DNA of 64,000 nucleotides, taken from Acidobacteriota bacterium. GTDB taxonomy: Bacteria; Acidobacteriota; UBA6911; RPQK01; JAJDTT01. The notes under the pieces are model-generated. The model ran no database searches. It was not told where the DNA came from and saw nothing but the letters and a program-made list of their open reading frames with translations. Where the stretch lies: positions 6,048,001-6,112,000 of the forward strand of contig CBDCJH010000002.1 of NCBI GenBank assembly GCA_965217775.1, written 5' to 3'. This document shows positions 1 through 11,456 of the stretch, piece by piece. Each line of letters starts with the position of its first letter. The first letter of the stretch is position 1. The position numbers and the translations under genes were made by a program.

Positions 1-301
1 GATGCTGTTCGCGGACCGGCTTGAGGTCATGAATTCGGGCCGGTTGCCGCCGCCCCTGACCGTGGACAAGCTGCGCCTGCCGCACCAGTCGCTCCCGGGC
101 AATCCGTTGCTGGCGGAGTCGATGTACCTGCTGCAGTACATCGAGAGGATGGGGACCGGGACCGTGGACATGATCCGACGTTGCGCGGAGACGGGCCTGC
201 CGGAGCCGGAGTTCGAGGTCGGCGCGGGGTTCCTGATCAGGATTTGGCGGTCCGGAGACCACGAGACCACCCAAGACCGTCGCGACACTACCCAGGACGC
301 A

Positions 302-330
302 ACCAGAAACCACCAGAAAACCACCAGAAC
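302..330 (+). repeat. 11-bp tandem repeat tract 1 (CCAGAAAACCA)
   Basis: accagaaaccaccagaaaaccaccagaac. Confidence 0.75.
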
Positions 331-602
331 GGAAGGGGGCCAGCCAGAACCTGGCGAACCGAATCCTCACATTCCTGCGGGAGCATCCGTCCGCCAGCCG
401 CCGCGACATGGTTGGAGCACTTGAAGGCGCCACCGAAGGGAGCGTCCGGTATCAGTTGGACAAGCTCAAGGAATTGGGTAAGTTACGTCGCGTCGGGCCA
501 GATAGGGGGGGACGCTGGCTGGTTATCGACGATCCCGACACGGACGCCAGGGAGGAGCCCGACGACTCTGCGGGGGACCGCCGGCACGCAAGGGAGACCC
601 AG

Positions 603-643
603 CCAGAAAACCACCAGAAAACCACCAGAAAACCGCCAGAAAC
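603..643 (+). repeat. 11-bp tandem repeat tract 2 (CCAGAAAACCA, about 3.6 units)
   Basis: ccagaaaacca-ccagaaaacca-ccagaaaaccg-ccagaaa. Confidence 0.85.
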
Positions 644-900
644 GAAGGCCAATCGCCAGAACCCCCATCCCTTTCCGGCCGCATCCTGGCTCTCCTTCGC
701 CAGAATCCTTTTGCGGGCCGCCGCGAAATCGCCACCACCCTCGGCACCACGCGATCCATCGTCCGGTACCGGCTGGACAAGTTGCGCGCGGCCGGGAAGA
801 TCGAGCGGATCGGTCCCGACAAGGGCGGCTACTGGAAAGTGCTGGGTGAATCCGCTGTCGAGCCCGAACCTACCCCCGAACGCGATCCCCGGAGCTCCCG

Positions 901-3900
901 ATGACCGCAGTCGGCGAGCTCGAAATCCGCACGCAGCGCCGTGTTGTCGACCACTTCCGGCGCCGGCTCGGCTACAGGTACCTGGGGAACTGGCACGAAC
1001 GCCCGAACAACCGGAACATCGAGGACGACCTCCTCAAGCGGTTCCTTACGCGCCAGGGCCATGACCCGGCCATCATCAACAAAGCGCTGGACAAGCTCGG
1101 CAAGGCCGCCGCTCTCGGCGGAGGCAAGACCCTCTACGACGCCAACCGCGAGGTCTACGGTCTCCTCCGCTACGGAGCCAAGGTCAGCCCCGGGCTCGGC
1201 GAACACACGGTCACCGTTGACTTGGTCGACTGGGGAAACCCGGCCGCCAACGACTTCGCCATCGCCGAAGAGGTCACGATCGAAGGGAATCACACCAAGC
1301 GGCCCGACATCGTGCTCTACGTCAACGGGATTGCTGTCGGCGTACTTGAGCTCAAGCGCTCGACCGTCTCGGTGGCGGAGGGAATCCGCCAGAATCTGGA
1401 CAACCAGAAGAGGGAGTTCATCCGGCCGTTCTTCACAACCGTGCAGCTCGTGCTGGCGGGCAACGATACCGAAGGGCTCCGGTACGGCGTGATCGGGACG
1501 CCGGAAAAGTACTGGCTCCGCTGGAAGGAAGCCGGTGCCCCTTCCTCTGACGTTCCCACCTCTCCCCTTCTTCGCGAGTTCGGCCAAATCTGCGCCCCTG
1601 TTCGCCTGCTTGAACTTATGCACGACTTCGTGGTCTTCGACGCCGGCGTCAAAAAGATCTGCCGCCACAACCAGTACTTTGGCGTGAAGGTGGCCCAGGA
1701 GTACGTCGGGCGCCGCGAAGGTGGGATCATTTGGCACACCCAGGGCAGCGGCAAGAGCCTCACGATGGTGTGGCTGGCGAAGTGGATCCGTGAGCTCAAG
1801 GGCGTGGACGGCCGCGTGCTAATCGTCACGGACCGCACCGAGCTCGACGAGCAGATCGAGAAGGTCTTCACCGGCGTGGACGAGGACATCTACCGCACGC
1901 AGAGTGGAGCCGACCTTGCGGAGGTGCTTCGCGACCCCGCCAAGTCGCTGATCTGTTCGCTCGTCCACAAGTTCGGGAGTTCCGAGGAAGGCAGCATCGA
2001 CCAGTACGTGAGCGACATCCAGAAACACGTGCCGCGCGGTTTCCGCCCTCCCGGCGAGATCTTCGTCTTCGTGGACGAGTGTCACCGCACCCAGTCCGGC
2101 AAGCTCCACAAGGCCATGAAGGCCATCCTCCCCGGAGCCACGCTCATCGGCTTTACGGGAACCCCGCTCCTCAGGTCCGACAAGAAGCGCAGTATCGAGA
2201 TCTTCGGCCCGTACATCCACACCTACAAGTACGATGAGGCGGTGGACGACAAGGTGGTTTTGGACCTGCGCTACGAGGCGCGTGACATCGACCAGAACAT
2301 CACGTCGGAGGCGAAGATCGATCAGTGGTTCGATCTCAAGACCAAGGGGCTCAGCGACTTGGCCCGGGCGCAGCTCAGGCAGAAGTGGGGCACCATGCGG
2401 AAGGTCACGAGCTCGCGGGACCGGATTGAGAAGATCGTGGACGACATCCTGATCGATATGGAGACGCGTGACCGCCTGAAGAGCGGGCGCGGCAACGCCA
2501 TGCTCGTGTCGGACAGCATCTACGCGGCCTGCCGCTTCTTCGAGGCGTTCAGTGGGACCGGACTGAAGGACAGGTGCGCCATCGTCACCTCCTATAGTCC
2601 CGCTGCAGGCGACATCAAGGGAGAAGAGACCGGCGAGGGCCTGACCGAGAAGCTGCAGAAGTACGACGTCTACCGCAAGATGCTGGCGGACCACTTCGGC
2701 GAGCCCGAGGACAAGGCCATGAACAAAGCCGAGCAGTTCGAGCAGCAGGTCAAGCGGCGGTTCGTCAACGAGCCCGGGCAGATGAAGCTCCTGATCGTCG
2801 TGGACAAGCTGCTGACCGGTTTCGATGCCCCTCCCGCAACGTATCTCTACATCGACAAGAAGATGCAGGATCACGGTCTCTTCCAGGCGATCTGCCGCGT
2901 CAACCGACTGGACGGAGAGGACAAGGAGTACGGCTACATCGTCGACTACAAGGATCTGTTCCGGTCGCTGGAGGGAGCGATCAAGGAATACACGGGCGAG
3001 GCGTTCGAGGGCTATGACCGCGAAGACGTGGAAGGCTTGTTGAAGGACCGCCTCGAGCGTGGGCGGGAGCGGCTGGAGGAGACCCGTGAAGCGGTCAAGG
3101 CGCTGTGCGAACCCGTCGAGCCGCCTGGGGACACCAAGTCGTACCTGCGGTATTTCTGCCACGACGGAGAGGGCGACACCGCCCGGCAGCTTGCTGCCAA
3201 CGAACGGAAGCGCCTCACGCTGTACAGGATGGTGGCGGCGTTTCTCCGCTCCTACGCCAACCTGGCCAACGAAATGATCGAGGCGGGTTACACGGAGGCC
3301 GAGCGACTCGAGATCAGGCACGAGGTGAGCCACTACGAAAAGGTTCGCCAGGAGGTCAAACTGGCCAGCGCCGACTACGTCGATCTCAAGATGTTCGAGC
3401 CCGCCATGCGGCACCTCCTCGACAACTACATCCGGGCCGACGAGAGCAAGGTCCTTTCCGCATTCAACGATCTGACGCTCGTAGACCTGCTCATCAAGGA
3501 CGGGGAGAGCGCCGTCGATTGGCTTCCCGAAGGGATTCGGGGCAACCGCCGCGCCGTCGCCGAGACCATCGAGAACAACGTCCGCCGCCTGATCGTCGAC
3601 GAGATGGCCGTGAATCCCAAGTACTACGAAAAGATGTCGGCGGTGCTCGATGCGCTGATCAAACAGCGCAGGGAGGAAGCGATCGAGTACGAGGCGTACC
3701 TCAAGAAGGTCATCGAGCTCGCCGAACAAGTGAGGAACGGGGAAGCCGGTGGTTCATATCCGGCGAGCATCAAAAACGGAGCACTGCGTGCAATATACGA
3801 CAACCTGCCGGCCGCATTACCGGCGGACCGAGTAGCTGAGCCTGGCGTGAGATGGGAGCCGGATACCGAAAACGATCCCCGCGAGGTCGCGGCGCTGGCT

Positions 3901-4056
3901 GTCGATCGCGCAATCCAACAGGCCCGGATGGCCGACTGGCGCGGCCACCCCATCAAGGAGAAGCGGATCGGTAGGGCGATCCGAGACGCACTCGGTCCCT
4001 TCAAGGCTTGCACGAAGACGATCTTCGAAATTGTGAAGGCCCGCAGTGAGTACTGA
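901..4056 (+). CDS. hsdR: Type I restriction endonuclease subunit R
   Basis: RPDIVLYVNG..ELK nuclease motif, WHTQGSGKS Walker A, DECHR, FTGTP, LLTGFDAP, QAICRVNR. Confidence 0.96.
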   Translation: MTAVGELEIRTQRRVVDHFRRRLGYRYLGNWHERPNNRNIEDDLLKRFLTRQGHDPAIINKALDKLGKAAALGGGKTLYDANREVYGLLRYGAKVSPGLGEHTVTVDLVDWGNPAANDFAIAEEVTIEGNHTKRPDIVLYVNGIAVGVLELKRSTVSVAEGIRQNLDNQKREFIRPFFTTVQLVLAGNDTEGLRYGVIGTPEKYWLRWKEAGAPSSDVPTSPLLREFGQICAPVRLLELMHDFVVFDAGVKKICRHNQYFGVKVAQEYVGRREGGIIWHTQGSGKSLTMVWLAKWIRELKGVDGRVLIVTDRTELDEQIEKVFTGVDEDIYRTQSGADLAEVLRDPAKSLICSLVHKFGSSEEGSIDQYVSDIQKHVPRGFRPPGEIFVFVDECHRTQSGKLHKAMKAILPGATLIGFTGTPLLRSDKKRSIEIFGPYIHTYKYDEAVDDKVVLDLRYEARDIDQNITSEAKIDQWFDLKTKGLSDLARAQLRQKWGTMRKVTSSRDRIEKIVDDILIDMETRDRLKSGRGNAMLVSDSIYAACRFFEAFSGTGLKDRCAIVTSYSPAAGDIKGEETGEGLTEKLQKYDVYRKMLADHFGEPEDKAMNKAEQFEQQVKRRFVNEPGQMKLLIVVDKLLTGFDAPPATYLYIDKKMQDHGLFQAICRVNRLDGEDKEYGYIVDYKDLFRSLEGAIKEYTGEAFEGYDREDVEGLLKDRLERGRERLEETREAVKALCEPVEPPGDTKSYLRYFCHDGEGDTARQLAANERKRLTLYRMVAAFLRSYANLANEMIEAGYTEAERLEIRHEVSHYEKVRQEVKLASADYVDLKMFEPAMRHLLDNYIRADESKVLSAFNDLTLVDLLIKDGESAVDWLPEGIRGNRRAVAETIENNVRRLIVDEMAVNPKYYEKMSAVLDALIKQRREEAIEYEAYLKKVIELAEQVRNGEAGGSYPASIKNGALRAIYDNLPAALPADRVAEPGVRWEPDTENDPREVAALAVDRAIQQARMADWRGHPIKEKRIGRAIRDALGPFKACTKTIFEIVKARSEY

Positions 4057-4789
4057 CAGGTACCACATGGATGTCCGCGGCATTCCCGTGGCGGTCATCC
4101 GCAAGGACATCAAGAACCTCCACCTGAGCGTCTATCCCCCCGAGGGTCAAGTGCGCGTCTCGGCTCCGCTGCGCCTGGACGACGACGCGATACGGCTGGC
4201 GGTGGTTTCGCGCCTGGGATGGATTCGGCGCAAACGTGCCGAGTTCGAGCAGCAAGACCGCCAATCCCGGCGCGACTTCGTGTCCGGTGAGAGTCACTAC
4301 TTCGAGGGACGACGCTATCGTCTGGATGTGGTTGAATCGCGAGGCCCAATCGGTATTCGTCTGCGCAACAATGCCTGGATGGAGATGCGCGTGCGGCCCG
4401 CGACCGGTCGCGACGCCCGCGAGGCCCTGCTCTACCGATGGTACCGGGCTCAACTGCGACAGCGCATCCCTGAGATGGTCGCCAAGTGGGAATCCCGGGT
4501 CGGCGTGCATGTGGCCGATTGGCGCATCCGTCGCATGAAGACACGCTGGGGAAGCTGCAATGCCGGGGCTTGCCGCATCTGGCTCAACTCCGAGCTGGCC
4601 AAGAAGCCCCTGCCCTGCCTCGAATACGTCGTCGTCCACGAGATGGCCCACCTCGCCGAGCCGAGCCACAACGAGCGCTTCCGGGAGATTTTGGACCGCG
4701 TAATGCCGAGTTGGCGCCTGCGCGCCGAAGAGTTGAATCGCACCCATCTTGCCGACGAAGTCTGGGGGGAATTGCTGCCTGTCAGGTAA
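4046..4789 (+). CDS. M48/YgjP (DUF45) zinc metallopeptidase, commonly found after hsdR
   Basis: MKTRWGSC, VVHEMAH, HNERF. Confidence 0.9.
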   Translation: MSTDRYHMDVRGIPVAVIRKDIKNLHLSVYPPEGQVRVSAPLRLDDDAIRLAVVSRLGWIRRKRAEFEQQDRQSRRDFVSGESHYFEGRRYRLDVVESRGPIGIRLRNNAWMEMRVRPATGRDAREALLYRWYRAQLRQRIPEMVAKWESRVGVHVADWRIRRMKTRWGSCNAGACRIWLNSELAKKPLPCLEYVVVHEMAHLAEPSHNERFREILDRVMPSWRLRAEELNRTHLADEVWGELLPVR

Positions 4790-6100: not shown

Positions 6101-6663
6101 ATGGAGCGAGTCGCCATTGCGATTGTGGGCTGCGGGAATTTCGGCTCCAGCATGGCCCGTCTGATCGGGGAACTGGAGTCCTACCGGATCGCCGGGTGCT
6201 ACGATCCCGACCGGGCAAGCACGTCTTCTGCGAGAAACCCATGGCGCTCAACGTCCAGGAGTGCCACCAGATGATGGAGGCGGCGACGGCGGCCGGCGTG
6301 AAGCTGATGGTCGGCCACAAGCGGCGGCTGCGTCCCCAGTACGCCAAGATGTCCCAAGTGGTTCGGAGCGGCCGTCTCGGACGGGTGATGGCCGTCGACA
6401 TCAATGGTTTCTACCACCGGGATTGGTGGAGCTGGTGGCTGCGGCGAGACCTGGGGGGAGGGCTGCTTCACGTCTCCGGCGTCCACGACATCGATTTTCT
6501 GCGGCATATTTGTGGCGAGGCGGGGAACGTATTCGCCCGGAGTCCCGTGAAGACGGCTCACCGGAGCGATTTCGAAGACGAGATCTCGGCATTGATCCAC
6601 TTCGAATCGGGCGCGGTGGCGACGCTTCAGGTCAGCCCCTTTTCTCCGGTTCGGACCTTTCGC
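6101..6663 (+). pseudogene. Truncated, internally deleted duplicate of the Gfo/Idh/MocA gene 5' end
   Basis: Near-identical to 9570..10280 (MERVAIAIVGCGNFG, CEKPMA); deletion and frameshift near 6210. Confidence 0.9.
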
Positions 6664-6890
6664 CTCGACCTCAAGAGCGGGAAGCTGACCCATCAGGATC
6701 TCGGCCAGATGCAGATGTACGTGAACTACTTCGACCGCTACGTGAAGACCGATGACGAACTGCCGACCGTCGGCATCCTGCTCTGTGACCGCAAGAACGA
6801 TGCCGTGGTCGAGCTGACGCTGCCCGAAGACGCCAACATCTACGCATCGAAGTATCATCTCTACCTGCCGTCGAAACGGGAACTCGCAGC
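6664..6890 (+). pseudogene. C-terminal fragment of YhcG/DUF1016 PDDEXK nuclease
   Basis: DLKSGKLTHQDLGQMQMYVNYFDR..PTVGILLC..NIYASKYHLYLP. Confidence 0.85.
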
Positions 6891-6957
6891 AACTCCTCAC
6901 CGGTTCCATCCGGCTGCCGCTCCCCGACGCCGACACGGAAGACGACCACGTCCATGA

Positions 6958-7115
6958 CAGCCCGTGGCAAAAGTCGTCACGGCATTCGACCGTCCCTGCA
7001 TCCCGGCGGACTGCGTTGCGATTCGGGCACATACTCCCGGTATGCACCCGAATCGCGCCTTGTCCGGCGGGCGCAGGAACGGTCTCGGTGCTCGCGGGAC
7101 TTTCACCACGGACTG
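6958..7115 (+). mobile_element. 158-bp MITE copy 1, target-site duplication ATGA
   Basis: TIRs CAGCCCGTGGCAAAAGTC / GACTTTCACCACGGACTG; ATGA at 6954-6957 and 7116-7119. Confidence 0.9.
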
Positions 7116-8810
7116 ATGACGCCTGAGTCACAGAACGTCGAGTGGAAGTCGTCCTGGCGGGACGAGTTCCTGAAGTGGATCTGCGGTTTCGCCAACGCCC
7201 AGGGCGGTGTCCTCGAGATCGGCCGGAACGACTGCGGCGAGGTCGTCGGGGTCAGCGACGTTCTGCGCCTGCTTGAGGAGATTCCCAACAAGGCGCAGTC
7301 TCTCCTCGGCATCGTTGTCGATATCGACCTGAAATCGGAGCATGGACGCGAGTACCTGCAGATCGGCGTCAAGCCCCATCCCAATCCGATCAGCTATCGG
7401 GGCAAGTTCCACTATCGGTCCGGGAGCACGAGCCAGGTCCTTCGGGGCGCCTCGCTCACGCGCTTCCTGCTGGAACGGCAGGGGCGGACATGGGACGATG
7501 GGGCGATCCCGGGGGTCCGCATGCGCGACTTGGACGGACACGCGCTGGATGACTTCCGGGAACGCGCTTCCGTCAGCGGCCGCCTGAACCAGAACATTCT
7601 CCGCGCATCGGACTCCGAGGTCATCGAGAGCTTGCGCCTTCGCGAGGGCCGGCACCTGAAGCGCGCTGCCGTCCTGCTCTTCCACCCGGAACCGGGCGCC
7701 TTCTTTCGGGAAGCCTATCTCAACAGCCCGTGGCAAAAGTCGTCGCGGCATTCGACCGTCCCTGCATCCCGGCGGACTGCGTTGCGATTCGGTCACATAC
7801 TCCCGGTATGCTCCCGAATCGCGCCTTGTCCGGCGGGCGCAGGAACGGTCTCGGTGCTCGCGAGACTTTCACCACGGACTGTCAAGATCGGGTATTTTCG
7901 CGGCGCCGACATCATGTATCAGGATACGGTGGAGGGCGATCTCTTCTCCCAGGTGGAGCGCGCCATGGACCTCCTCTACTCCAAGTACTCGCGCGCGCTG
8001 ATTTCGTACGACGACGTTTACCGGGTCGAGACTCACCCCGTGCCCTACGAGGCCATGCGCGAAGCGGTCACAAACGCGGTCATCCATCGCGACTACGCAG
8101 TCCCCGTACCCATTCAGATCCGTGTCCATGACGACCGCGTGGCCATCTGGAATGCGGGGCGGCTCCCGACGGGGTGGTCGCTGGAGAATCTGACCGGTGA
8201 GCACGCGTCACGGCCGTACAACCCGGCGATCGCGGACGCTTTCTTTGGCGCAGGCCTGATCGAAGCCTGGGGTCGCGGGATCCGCCGGATCAGGCAGGCA
8301 TGTGAGGACGCGGGTAACCCGGTGCCCCGTTGGCGGATCGAGCCCGGCGGTCTGTGGGTCGAATTCCCGTTTTCTGCCGCGTACCTGGCCAAAGACGCTC
8401 GGTTGCGCCGAGCGGGAAATCAGCCAGAAAACCACCAGAAAACCACCAGAAAAGACGGTCAACAGCCAGAAAAAGGCCAGAAAACCGCCGGAGAAGTCCG
8501 GGAAGAGGCGTCCGGAGACCCTGAAGACCACCAGAAACGAGTAGGATCAGCCAGAAAACCGCCAGAAACCCCGTCCCTTTACGACCGTATTCTCGCTCTT
8601 CTCCGTAGGCAGCCATCCATCAGCCGCCGCGAAATGGCCGCCACGCTCGGCACCACCACGTCCACCGTCCGGTACCGGCTGGACAAGTTGCGCGCGGCCG
8701 GGAAGATAGAGCGGGTCGGCCCCGACAAGGGCGGGTACTGGAAGGTGCAGGGCGGGTCCACCACCGATCGCGATCCTTCTCCCGAACCCGGCTCCGGGAA
8801 CGCCCGATGA
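7116..8810 (+). CDS. AlbA_2 (Schlafen-like) + HATPase_c_4 + wHTH protein with an in-frame MITE insertion
   Basis: ESQNVEWKSSW..GFANAQGG, REAVTNAVIHRDY, IEAWGRG, C-terminal HTH; ends in ATGA overlap with the hsdR remnant; upstream in-frame ATG at 6954. Confidence 0.85.
   Translation: MTPESQNVEWKSSWRDEFLKWICGFANAQGGVLEIGRNDCGEVVGVSDVLRLLEEIPNKAQSLLGIVVDIDLKSEHGREYLQIGVKPHPNPISYRGKFHYRSGSTSQVLRGASLTRFLLERQGRTWDDGAIPGVRMRDLDGHALDDFRERASVSGRLNQNILRASDSEVIESLRLREGRHLKRAAVLLFHPEPGAFFREAYLNSPWQKSSRHSTVPASRRTALRFGHILPVCSRIAPCPAGAGTVSVLARLSPRTVKIGYFRGADIMYQDTVEGDLFSQVERAMDLLYSKYSRALISYDDVYRVETHPVPYEAMREAVTNAVIHRDYAVPVPIQIRVHDDRVAIWNAGRLPTGWSLENLTGEHASRPYNPAIADAFFGAGLIEAWGRGIRRIRQACEDAGNPVPRWRIEPGGLWVEFPFSAAYLAKDARLRRAGNQPENHQKTTRKDGQQPEKGQKTAGEVREEASGDPEDHQKRVGSARKPPETPSLYDRILALLRRQPSISRREMAATLGTTTSTVRYRLDKLRAAGKIERVGPDKGGYWKVQGGSTTDRDPSPEPGSGNAR
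7724..7881 (+). mobile_element. 158-bp MITE copy 2, TSD TCAA, in frame within CDS
   Basis: Same TIRs; TCAA at 7720-7723 and 7882-7885. Confidence 0.9.
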
Positions 8811-9378
8811 CTCCCGTCGGCGAGGTCGAGGCTCGCACTCACCGCCGGGTCATTGCCCACTTCCAGCACCACCTCGGCTATCAGCCCGTGGCAAAAGTCG
8901 TCACGGCATTCGACCGTCCCTGCATCCCGGCGGACTGCGTTGCTATCGGCTCACATACTCCCGGTATGCTCCCTCCGAAGCGCCTTGTCCGGCGGGCGCA
9001 GGAACGGTCTCGGTGCTCGCGCGACTTTCACCACGGACTGCTATACTTTCCTCGGCAACTGGCACGAAGGTCAGAACAACCGAAACATCGAAGCCGACTA
9101 TCTCAGGCGATTCCTCGCGGGCCAGGGTCACGACCCCGCCATCATCCCCGGCTCGAACCTGATCGGCTTCATCGGCACGCCGCTCCTCAAATCCGACAAG
9201 CAGCGCAGCGTCGAGACCTTCGGACCATACATCCACACCTACAAGTCCGACGAAGCGGTAGGCGATGAGGTGGTGCTGGACTTGCGCTACGAGGCACGCG
9301 GCATCGACCATGACATCTCCTCCGAGGCAAAGATCGACCAATGGTTGACCTGAAGACTCGGGGATTGAGCGACCTGGC
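8807..9378 (+). pseudogene. hsdR: Degenerate hsdR copy (MITE insertion, about 1 kb internal deletion, truncation)
   Basis: MTPVGEVEARTHRRV, LGNWHEGQNNRNIE and IGFIGTPLL..VVLDLRYEAR match 901..2370. Confidence 0.9.
8882..9040 (+). mobile_element. 159-bp MITE copy 3, TSD CTAT
   Basis: Same TIRs; CTAT at 8878-8881 and 9041-9044. Confidence 0.9.
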
Positions 9379-9541
9379 CCGCGCGCAGAGCTGGACCCTG
9401 CGGGTGAGATTGCTGAAGATCGGGGTCCAGGTCCGGGTCACGAGGCGCAAGGTCTGGCTGTCGTTTTCCGAGAGCTACCCCTATGCGGTGCTGTTGAGGA
9501 CGGCTCTGGCGCAAGTGCAAGTCCTCCCGCTTCGCTGGTAG
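9375..9541 (+). mobile_element. C-terminal fragment of an IS1380-family transposase
   Basis: ARAQSWTLRVRLLKIGVQVRVTRRKVWLSFSESYPY resembles IS1380 transposase C-termini. Confidence 0.7.
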
Positions 9542-9569
9542 CATCATCTTAAAGAGGCGGGTTCGGCAA

Positions 9570-11456
9570 ATGGAGCGAGTCGCGATCGCGATTGTGGGCT
9601 GTGGGAATTTCGGCTCGCACATGGCCCGCCTGATCCAGGAGTTGGAGCCCTTCCGGATCGCCGGTTGCTACGATTCCGACTGGGCCGGCGCCGACTCTTT
9701 GGCGGCCGGTCTCGAGACATCCACTTACGAATCGTTCTCCGACTGTCTGAGCGATCCCAGGCTCGACGCGGTTTTCCTGGCGACGCCCAACCACCTGCAC
9801 TGCCCCCAGGCGGTGGCGGCCGCCCGGGCGGGCAAGCATATCTTCTGCGAGAAGCCCATGGCGCTCGACGTCCAGGAGTGCCACCGGATGATGAAGGCGG
9901 CGACGGCGGCCGGCGTGAAGCTGATGGTCGGCCACAAGCGCCGGCTGCGTCCTCAGTACGCCAAGATGTCCCAGGTGGTTCGAAGCGGCCGTCTCGGACG
10001 GGTGATGGCGGTCAACATCAATGGGTTCTACCATCGGGACTGGTGGAGCTGGTGGCTGCGGCGAGAACTGGGGGGAGGGCTGCTTCACGCCTCCGGCGTC
10101 CACGACGTCGATTTTCTGCGGCACATCTGTGGCGAAGCAGGGAACGTGTTCGCCAGGAGTCCCGTGAAGACGGATCATCGGAGCGATTTCGAAGACGAGA
10201 TCTCGGCATTGATCCACTTCGAATCGGGCGCGGTGGCGACGCTTCAGGTCAGCCCCTTCTCTCCGATTCGGACCTTTCGCCAGTCCTTCGGCGTACATAT
10301 CGTGCTGGAGCAGGGCGGAATCCTCTACGATCCCGGCGATTGCAGCGTCACCATTCGGAGCCGCGACGGCTGGGAGGAGCGGCACCGGTTCGACAACGAG
10401 GCCGGCTTCCGGAGCGCCTACGTCGAAGAGTTGACCAGCTTTGCCGATTGGATATTGAGAGACGAGGAACCGGTGCTCACTGGTTGGGACGGCCTGCGCT
10501 GCGTGGAGATCATGGAGGCCGCTTATCTCTCGGCTCGGACCGGGCGGCAGGTCGAGCTGCCGCTGCCGCGGCGGAACGCCCCCGCCATCATTCGGGGCCC
10601 CCTCTCCCGGAGGCGGGACCTGGAGGAGCCGACCCTCTTTGCCCGAGGTCTCTCCATGCCCGAGGGCCCGGCCTTCGACGCCGGCGGAAACCTCTTCGTG
10701 GCCAACTGCCGCGCCGACCACGTGTCCAGGATCTCCCCGGCCGGCCGGGTGTCCCGCTTCCTGACCACGGGCGGAAAGCCCCAGGGCGTGGTGGTCGATC
10801 CGGACGGGAGCCTTCTCATATCGGACCACAAGTTGCGCAAGATTCTGCGGGCCGGACCCGATGGATCGCTGGAGGATTTCTGCACCCACTACGGTGACGG
10901 ACGCCGGCTTCGGGGACCCAACGAAATCCTTCTCGGTCCCGGCGGGCAGTTCTACTTCACCGATCCGGGAACGGCGTGGCGCGGCCGTCGTACCGGAGCC
11001 GTCTCACGGGTCACGGAGCAGGGTTTCGCGGAAATTCTTGCGGACGGTCTGGAGTTCACCAACGGCTTGGATTTTCATCCCGACGGGTCGGCGATCTTCG
11101 TGGTGGAGACCACCAGCGGTAAGATCCTGCGCGCGCCGCTGGATGAGTCGGGGGCCTTGGCCGGACCTCTCGAGGAGTTCGTTCGTTTCCCGGGCCGGGT
11201 CGGTCCCGACGGGATCCGATTCGCCGCCGATGGCGATCTCTACGTCACCCTCTTCGGCCGCGGCCAGATCGCCGTGGTCTCCCCCGGCGCCGAGGTGATC
11301 GATCGAATCCGGCTTCCCGGTCTGTATCCCACCAACGCGGTCTTCCGGGACGGTAATCTATTGGTGTGCGAAGGGGCCACGGGCGCCATCTGGAGTCTGG
11401 CTCTGGGTGTTGAGGGGCTTCCGAGCTACTCGGAGAGGGTTTGGAACGGAGTGTAA
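9570..11456 (+). CDS. Gfo/Idh/MocA oxidoreductase fused to an SMP-30/gluconolactonase domain
   Basis: GCGNFG, CEKPMA, HDVD; then PEGPAFD, GPNE, FTNGL, GPDG, PTN. Confidence 0.9.
   Translation: MERVAIAIVGCGNFGSHMARLIQELEPFRIAGCYDSDWAGADSLAAGLETSTYESFSDCLSDPRLDAVFLATPNHLHCPQAVAAARAGKHIFCEKPMALDVQECHRMMKAATAAGVKLMVGHKRRLRPQYAKMSQVVRSGRLGRVMAVNINGFYHRDWWSWWLRRELGGGLLHASGVHDVDFLRHICGEAGNVFARSPVKTDHRSDFEDEISALIHFESGAVATLQVSPFSPIRTFRQSFGVHIVLEQGGILYDPGDCSVTIRSRDGWEERHRFDNEAGFRSAYVEELTSFADWILRDEEPVLTGWDGLRCVEIMEAAYLSARTGRQVELPLPRRNAPAIIRGPLSRRRDLEEPTLFARGLSMPEGPAFDAGGNLFVANCRADHVSRISPAGRVSRFLTTGGKPQGVVVDPDGSLLISDHKLRKILRAGPDGSLEDFCTHYGDGRRLRGPNEILLGPGGQFYFTDPGTAWRGRRTGAVSRVTEQGFAEILADGLEFTNGLDFHPDGSAIFVVETTSGKILRAPLDESGALAGPLEEFVRFPGRVGPDGIRFAADGDLYVTLFGRGQIAVVSPGAEVIDRIRLPGLYPTNAVFRDGNLLVCEGATGAIWSLALGVEGLPSYSERVWNGV

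Follow-up and report, generated by a model that had tools for sequence, protein, structure and literature searches.

Reading frame follows whole-unit changes in 11-bp repeat linkers of a truncated winged-helix gene adjoining hsdR in an Acidobacteriota genome

The beginning of a 64-kb stretch of an Acidobacteriota genome raises the question of whether short tandem repeats of 11 bp, a length not divisible by three, act as a switch for a gene that abuts the type I restriction-modification (R-M) gene hsdR. The stretch, here called the window, comprises 64,000 nucleotides of contig CBDCJH010000002.1 (positions 6,048,001 to 6,112,000); the genome under study is referred to as G000, all coordinates are those of the window, and negative numbers lie upstream of its start. 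The repeats form linkers next to two winged helix-turn-helix (wHTH) modules lying in different reading frames, and the original prediction was that slipped-strand changes toggle these modules and possibly the translational coupling of hsdR. We find that the reading frame does follow whole-unit differences among relatives. The tracts are probably a hot spot for strand slippage within a disordered linker, and the G000 copy would be a gene fragment, part of a decaying type I R-M operon, in which two losses of repeat units have become fixed. The features concerned are the following.

1..250, plus strand: HATPase_c_4 remnant, the 3′ part of a gene for DUF4062, HATPase_c_4 and two wHTH modules; frame 2 (PF13749, E 7.1e-17)
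303-330, plus strand: tract 1, in linker 1; 2.6 units of CCAGAAAACCA
351..527, plus strand: wHTH1 module; frame 3; 47% identity to the wHTH of a paralogue elsewhere in the window
603-643, plus strand: tract 2, in linker 2; 3.6 units
671..904, plus strand: wHTH2 module (671-844) and C-terminal tail; frame 2 (PF13412, E 4.1e-7)
901..4056, plus strand: hsdR, intact, 1051 amino acids; Pfam matches to HSDR_N, SWI2_SNF2 and a T1R_D3-like domain

The linkers are built of 11-bp units, as had been proposed. Tandem Repeats Finder reports three arrays with a period of 11 bp in the first 13 kb (302-329, 2.6 copies; 603-642, 3.6 copies; 8424-8453, 2.7 copies), and a reading by hand agrees. Tract 1 consists of CCAGAAACCA (303-312, one A short), CCAGAAAACCA (313-323) and CCAGAAC (324-330), and tract 2 of three full CCAGAAAACCA units (603-635) followed by CCAGAAAC (636-643). 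Ten copies of the core CCAGAAAAC are present in the window where 0.47 would be expected; none of 100 shuffles has as many, and eight of the ten fall within the two linker regions. An 18-mer spanning two units (at most one mismatch) is found seven times in the whole 6.43-Mb genome, always within the two loci that carry such tracts.

In G000 the coding segments are out of frame with one another at both tracts. A HATPase_c_4 domain followed by a wHTH is recognisable on the G000 pieces (PF13749 and PF13412), in different frames. By three-frame translation the open reading frame (ORF) of the HATPase_c_4 remnant runs in frame 2 from 2 to 424 and closes at the stop at 422-424. For wHTH1, to which Pfam gives a weak FaeA match below the cut-off (E 0.0028), the earliest in-frame start codon is an ATG within the module itself, at 408; for wHTH2, which is 66% identical to its counterpart in the paralogue, the only start after the last stop in its frame is the TTG at 782. 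Neither module can therefore be translated whole, there being no usable start codon. Gain of one unit in tract 1 would mend the frame of wHTH1, and loss of one unit in tract 2 would mend that of wHTH2; the arithmetic of both proposals is correct. The repaired gene would end, again as proposed, in an ATGA overlap with hsdR, the TGA of the wHTH2 frame (902-904) overlapping the hsdR ATG at 901. The hsdR gene has its own Shine-Dalgarno-like GGAG at 891-894, six bases before its ATG.

Relatives show which of these changes occur in nature. Of 61 related genomes searched at the DNA level, nine including G000 have the locus, and four genomes of the same genus (G007, G005, G003 and G002) align over the whole region at 91-94% identity. 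Tract 1 is longer than in G000 by exactly 11 bp in all four (3.6 versus 2.6 units). Tract 2 is longer by 22 bp in G007, G005 and G003 (5.6 units, the two further ones somewhat diverged) and shorter by 11 bp in G002 (2.6 units versus 3.6), the very loss predicted to mend wHTH2. As +22 and -11 are equivalent modulo three, all four relatives are in frame throughout, and the frame is broken in G000 only, at tract 1 as well as at tract 2. The clean 11- and 22-bp differences indicate that the G000 frameshifts are whole-unit insertions or deletions and not single-base errors. The first unit of tract 1 is one A short in all five aligned genomes, and supplying that A in G000 would leave the frame broken. 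The ATGA overlap with hsdR is likewise conserved in five of five. The tract units are often imperfect in the relatives, and unit number varies in whole steps; the two findings that would have told against the original prediction, invariant tract length and single-base errors in the A-runs, were not encountered.

Two rival explanations can be weighed at this point. The missing units could be consensus errors of assembly or sequencing, the true sequence being in frame. Among 24 sequencing runs found, all in the form of Logan contigs, four (X15, X17, X18 and X1) were compared at the tracts, and none independently confirms the G000 lengths: the contigs of X17 and X18 end inside tracts, that of X15 has 11 bp more in tract 1 with just three other differences from G000 in 283 bp, and that of X1 has 11 bp more in tract 1 and 22 bp more in tract 2. 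(For X15 the insertion-bearing depth at place 306 is 37.8 of 75.4; the remaining contigs there are unlisted, so this is no evidence of two alleles.) Such an artefact is nevertheless very unlikely, since clean indels of 11 and 22 bp are unlike homopolymer errors, supplying the missing A leaves the frame broken, whole-unit differences also occur in unrelated assemblies, and the gene is independently broken by the 2.6-kb deletion described below. The other explanation is programmed recoding, by which ribosomal frameshifting or transcriptional slippage at A-runs would fuse the three frames. The two shifts do compensate each other (+1, then -1) and both fall within A-rich repeats, although all four orthologues read in frame, the A-runs are just 3-4 bases long, frame 2 meets its stop at 422-424, Rfam gives no match in window positions 1-1200 at E values up to 1, and the 5′ half of the gene is missing; we regard recoding as extremely improbable.

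The intact form of the gene is seen in G007, in which an ORF of 629 amino acids encodes an N-terminal DUF4062 (PF13271, E 3.3e-20), HATPase_c_4, a linker, a wHTH, a second linker and a second wHTH. It is preceded in its operon by hsdM, a YhcG/DUF1016 gene and hsdS (PF01420, E 9.5e-47), and overlaps by ATGA an hsdR of 1051 amino acids, the same length as that of G000. Homology of G000 to the full-length gene starts only at window position -31/-32, and the alignment with the paralogue (tblastn) only at amino acid 379. A 2,598-bp stretch of G007 (L025 1438|4037) is missing from G000, its flanks being joined at -33|-32, just upstream of the window (G000:C2 about 6047967/6047968; L008 7967/7968). 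With it are lost the 3′ end of YhcG, the whole of hsdS and about 307 5′ codons including DUF4062, and the junction, at which no clear microhomology was seen, fuses YhcG/DUF1016, broken off midway, to the HATPase_c_4 domain encoded two genes further on. No hsdS (PF01420) was found near the window, and the three matches genome-wide lie elsewhere (two at 2.01 Mb and one at 3.49 Mb); hsdR, hsdM and hsdS are thus not found together at the G000 locus. An hsdM-like ORF of 816 amino acids, named by eye from its sequence, lies upstream of the window (L008 4786-7236); it overlaps the start of the YhcG ORF and has, by eye, a long charged, possibly coiled-coil, C-terminal extension. PADLOC and NCBIfam give partial or sub-threshold matches only (pAgo/SIR2-associated and Csa3 wHTH-like stretches) and name no system. 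One further gene lies downstream of hsdR.

4046..4789, plus strand: YgjP-like metallopeptidase gene (PF01863, E 5e-60)

The sister genomes show losses of their own. In G005 (L026) hsdR and YgjP are lost at the same locus, and in G002 (L028) most of hsdM, the hsdS region and most of hsdR have gone through different deletions, leaving an in-frame remnant of 294 amino acids with HATPase_c_4 and both wHTH modules. Judged from these alignments, the damage to this type I R-M locus arose independently in G005 and G002.

The second set of tracts in the window belongs to another decayed locus, with the following features.

6665..9569, plus strand: second, decayed locus; an insertion relative to G005 and G002
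6665-6873, plus strand: YhcG 3′ fragment
7116..8810, plus strand: paralogue with SLFN_AlbA_2, HATPase_c_4 and one wHTH (Pfam)
8424..8453, plus strand: 11-bp tract of the paralogue, 2.7 units; further single units at 8477 and 8551
8807-~9388, plus strand: hsdR remnant with a repeat-element insertion and a deletion of ~1 kb

Part of a GFO/IDH/MocA gene is duplicated on the two sides of this locus (6206-6664 matches 9823-10281 at 93% identity), and the ORF at 6196-6957 is a chimera of GFO_IDH_MocA_C and YhcG_C. A reciprocal rearrangement between the two loci was considered and set aside: the YhcG fragment at 6665-6873 does not exactly make up what the deletion removed, a gap of ~140 bp remaining in G007 coordinates. 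The paralogue had been put forward as an in-frame counterpart that overlaps its own copy of hsdR in the same way. It does carry a similar tract, is in frame across it and ends in ATGA (8807-8810), but the supposed hsdR copy is a remnant, and the paralogue itself contains a 159-bp repeat-element insertion (7723-7881, equal to ~53 codons) relative to homologues of 511 amino acids (BLASTP against P0055). Copies of this ~160-bp element, recognised as tblastn matches of P0001 residues 1-58 and 250-315, number in the hundreds across both contigs of the genome and are open in at least one frame; those at 6954-7116, 7723-7881 and 8882-9040 lie within 2.1 kb, two of them inside genes.

The CCAGAAAACCA unit is stop-free and hydrophilic in all three frames, and three units (33 bp) encode PENHQKTTRKP. 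In an AlphaFold2 model of the C-terminal 318 amino acids of the G007 protein (33-sequence alignment) both wHTH modules fold as winged helices with a predicted local distance difference test score (pLDDT) of ~89-95, the residues orthologous to wHTH1 at ~89, and both linkers have pLDDT below 40 and no secondary structure. Codon use in the G007 linkers differs from that in the rest of the gene, with AAA for Lys in 4 of 5 versus 2 of 17 codons, AGR for Arg in 6 of 12 versus 8 of 64, and CCA for Pro in 5 of 10 versus 2 of 32; linker codon use follows the DNA motif and not the preference of the genome. When P0045 is compared by eye with P0034, part of linker 2 is read in another frame and the frame is regained before wHTH2; the linker peptide thus seems weakly constrained, and it is the net frame that matters.

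Searching proteins with the C-terminal region of the G007 sequence yielded 128 matches, whose linkers show the peptide period PEN.QKT.RK., equivalent to three 11-bp units read in three frames. Tandem Repeats Finder was run on the linker region before the wHTH at 80 related genomic loci: the period is 11 bp in eight, only other periods occur in 43 (mostly 12 or 21 bp, two also showing a short 7- or 13-bp repeat), nine have no repeat, 19 have no adjacent wHTH and one is unscored. These counts make the repeat linker the rule and the 11-bp unit the exception. The frame is broken at the linker in two of the eight period-11 loci (L031 and L032), both with a full-length upstream part of the gene, and in none of the 43 with other periods. 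L031 is 99.8% identical over 546 amino acids to P0006, which has one unit more and is in frame. Apparent breaks elsewhere proved to have other causes: that in L066 is a 7-bp duplication inside HATPase_c_4, and in L074 and L078 the match taken for a second wHTH belongs to the next gene. L056, with an apparent linker frame break, was left unclassified.

Further out-of-frame alleles are seen at the protein level, where 49 listed members of 88, in five clusters at 90% identity, were read. Four of the 49 are out of frame at a tract: P0130 at tract 2, P0137 at tract 1, and P0161 and P0162, which read as the paralogue type minus exactly one unit; P0140 is an in-frame variant lacking 11 amino acids. 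When all period-11 loci with DNA and classifiable frames are taken together (n = 16), 13 are in frame and three out (the first G000 copy, L031 and L032), a count that is descriptive only, as the loci are kin; L127, whose ORF begins just 93 nt upstream of the tract, was left out of the frame classes. Out-of-frame whole-unit alleles thus appear, from the sequences compared, to recur only in the 11-bp subfamily.

By record titles and source names the 11-bp design occurs in Acidobacteriota, Gemmatimonadota and Gammaproteobacteria, and it is also present on a low-GC metagenome contig (L128). A pattern scan of 401 genomes of the phylum matched only G000, G002, G005, G006 and G102, too few for statistics. 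When metagenomes were scanned for two tandem units, 43 loci matched, and the repeat forms a wHTH linker only in L127, L128 and L142; as the rest are unrelated intergenic or other repeats, the CCAGAAAACCA motif alone is no marker of the family. Several sponge-metagenome runs contain small shares (0.14-0.30) of the sequence words, and no habitat is claimed from them. On the metagenome contig L132 an array of ~640 bp (1201-1837) is made up of CCAGAAAACCA-like and CCATTTTCCA-like units in alternation, with no wHTH context. Linkers of 11-bp units are found with and without hsdR: seven of 13 period-11 loci checked have no hsdR downstream, and many 12- and 21-bp loci do have one. One predicted protein of 845 residues, P0020, has a wHTH module fused to the N-terminus of HsdR (Pfam matches HSDR_N and SWI2_SNF2), which suggests that the ATGA stop/start boundary has been lost in some allele.

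These observations are best accommodated if the tracts are slippage hot spots in the inter-domain linkers of a defence-island protein, whose gene, in intact relatives, sits in a type I R-M operon with hsdS before it and hsdR after it. Because the unit is stop-free and hydrophilic in every frame, the linker would tolerate gain and loss of units provided that the net frame stays, and a change of one or two units would frameshift the protein ahead of a wHTH module. In G000 a 2.6-kb deletion has taken the YhcG 3′ end, hsdS and the ~307 5′ codons, and the remaining fragment has 11 bp less in tract 1 and 22 bp less in tract 2 than the three closest relatives. We infer that these losses are unselected slippage mutations in a pseudogene that probably has no function, and not the current setting of a working switch. 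The proposed toggling of the wHTH modules would then stand in part: whole-unit changes among relatives and strains do decide the frame, and the truncated G000 gene leaves nothing to switch. Several points weigh against this account. The frameshifts in G000 may predate or follow the deletion, and its tract lengths come from the assembly alone, with the X17 and X18 contigs breaking at the tracts. Whole-unit out-of-frame alleles recur in several lineages, in genes that otherwise look intact, and a contingency locus would also yield such alleles. The 11-bp design has moreover not been purged by selection, since it persists across distant lineages.

The strongest rival is an evolved contingency locus, in which the tracts are kept for frequent, reversible slippage that switches the wHTH modules on and off. 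In genes that adjoin hsdR, a switch would change the expression of hsdR as well, by polarity or by the loss of translational coupling. G000 would on this view belong to a lineage captured in the OFF state that lost the 5′ half of the gene later or independently. Such a locus would be expected to have a repeat unit that does not divide into whole codons, as here, and unit number does vary between near-identical sequences (G000 and the X15 contig; L031 and P0006), three of the 16 period-11 loci are out of frame with further OFF alleles inferred from proteins, and the hsdR overlap is kept in all five aligned genomes. Simple sequence repeats (SSRs) of at least three units in type I R-M genes are, moreover, accepted as candidate phase-variable tracts in the available passages of a published survey (PMC7383803). 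The three perfect units of tract 2 reach that entry number, although tracts of four units or fewer are there rated as likely to be slow, switching probably at very low rates. The tracts here have few units (2.6-5.6), and their copies in relatives are often imperfect; the ~307 5′ codons of the G000 gene are gone, hsdR has a GGAG of its own, and more than half of the checked period-11 loci (seven of 13) have no hsdR to couple to. On balance we consider the contingency locus unlikely, though not so remote as the artefact or recoding. A bolder form of it, which we rate as doubtful, holds that the 11-nt unit is a contingency device for reversible, high-frequency shedding of C-terminal wHTH modules from DUF4062/Schlafen-type defence proteins of uncultured bacteria; ATGA-coupled slippage would then lower restriction while methylation continues, and the G000 locus would be a fossil switch. 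Phase variation within the family is possible, and an evolved switch cannot operate in G000. The slippage hot spot in a decaying operon is thus the reading that we favour for this locus.

Under that reading the G000 locus is best annotated as pseudogenes with an orphan hsdR and an orphan hsdM, because the operon no longer encodes a specificity subunit. Automated gene prediction will cut genes of this type short at the tracts or divide them there. The subfamily as a whole has swapped the usual in-frame 12- or 21-bp linker unit for one of 11 bp, and its natural alleles repeatedly fall out of frame. Were this adaptive, it would take SSR phase variation beyond pathogens into uncultured environmental bacteria, beyond hsd genes into the defence genes embedded among them, and to an unusual unit length.

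The closest known systems are the phase-variable type I R-M genes with SSRs, which share with the present tracts a tandem repeat not divisible by three within an ORF of the operon, a shift of frame on gain or loss of units, and a unit number that differs between related genomes. In the passages available from the survey cited above, only SSRs of hsdR, hsdM and hsdS are covered (PMC7383803), and the G000 repeat lies instead in an accessory gene between hsdS and hsdR. Those passages mention units up to octa- or nonanucleotides (PMC7383803), shorter than the 11-bp unit found here in tracts of 2.6-5.6 units. Unlike the SSR phase-variable genes, the G000 gene is a truncated remnant, and reversible switching is here a candidate property only. 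Keyword searches of the literature turned up no account of 11-bp repeat linkers, of any repeat linkers in this protein family or of SSRs within hsd-operon accessory genes, although the supplementary tables of PMC7383803 could list longer units. The locus is best described, from its sequence, as a putative SSR frameshift hot spot of unusual unit length and gene context, exemplified by a pseudogene and with switching as a candidate only.

The protein itself resembles the DUF4062 'Evangelion' proteins, which are reported to be single-gene anti-phage defences (bioRxiv 10.64898/2026.06.25.731849, in the passages found), in that the G007 orthologue also begins with DUF4062 joined to a diversified C-terminal region. 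It differs in that those passages mention no wHTH, linker or type I R-M context, and in that DUF4062 has been deleted in G000. A defence role for the intact orthologue is plausible by this likeness.

Accessory or defence genes are known to be embedded in type I R-M operons, an example being the PrrC anticodon nuclease. The present gene resembles prrC in being a non-R-M gene within an hsd operon adjoining hsdR, and differs in belonging to an unrelated protein family.

The nearest structural comparison is with the in-frame linkers of 12, 21 and 24 bp in HATPase_c_4 proteins (43 of the 80 loci), which share with the 11-bp linkers their position before a wHTH, their hydrophilic low complexity and their variable copy number. 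Such in-frame tandem-repeat linkers are not known to have been described in print, though no search was aimed at them. In many phyla perfect 12-bp repeats encode tetrapeptide linkers (TTQE, GEKL-like and others) before the wHTH of these proteins, and their copy numbers vary widely (L070-L108), with 10.2 copies in L094 and eight copies of ACTACCCAAGAA in L078. A single C separates the in-frame motif ACCACCCAGAAA (TTQK) from the 11-mer, and L114 contains a mixture of the two unit lengths. In the in-frame linkers slippage alters length only, whereas the 11-bp unit shifts the frame unless it is changed in threes.

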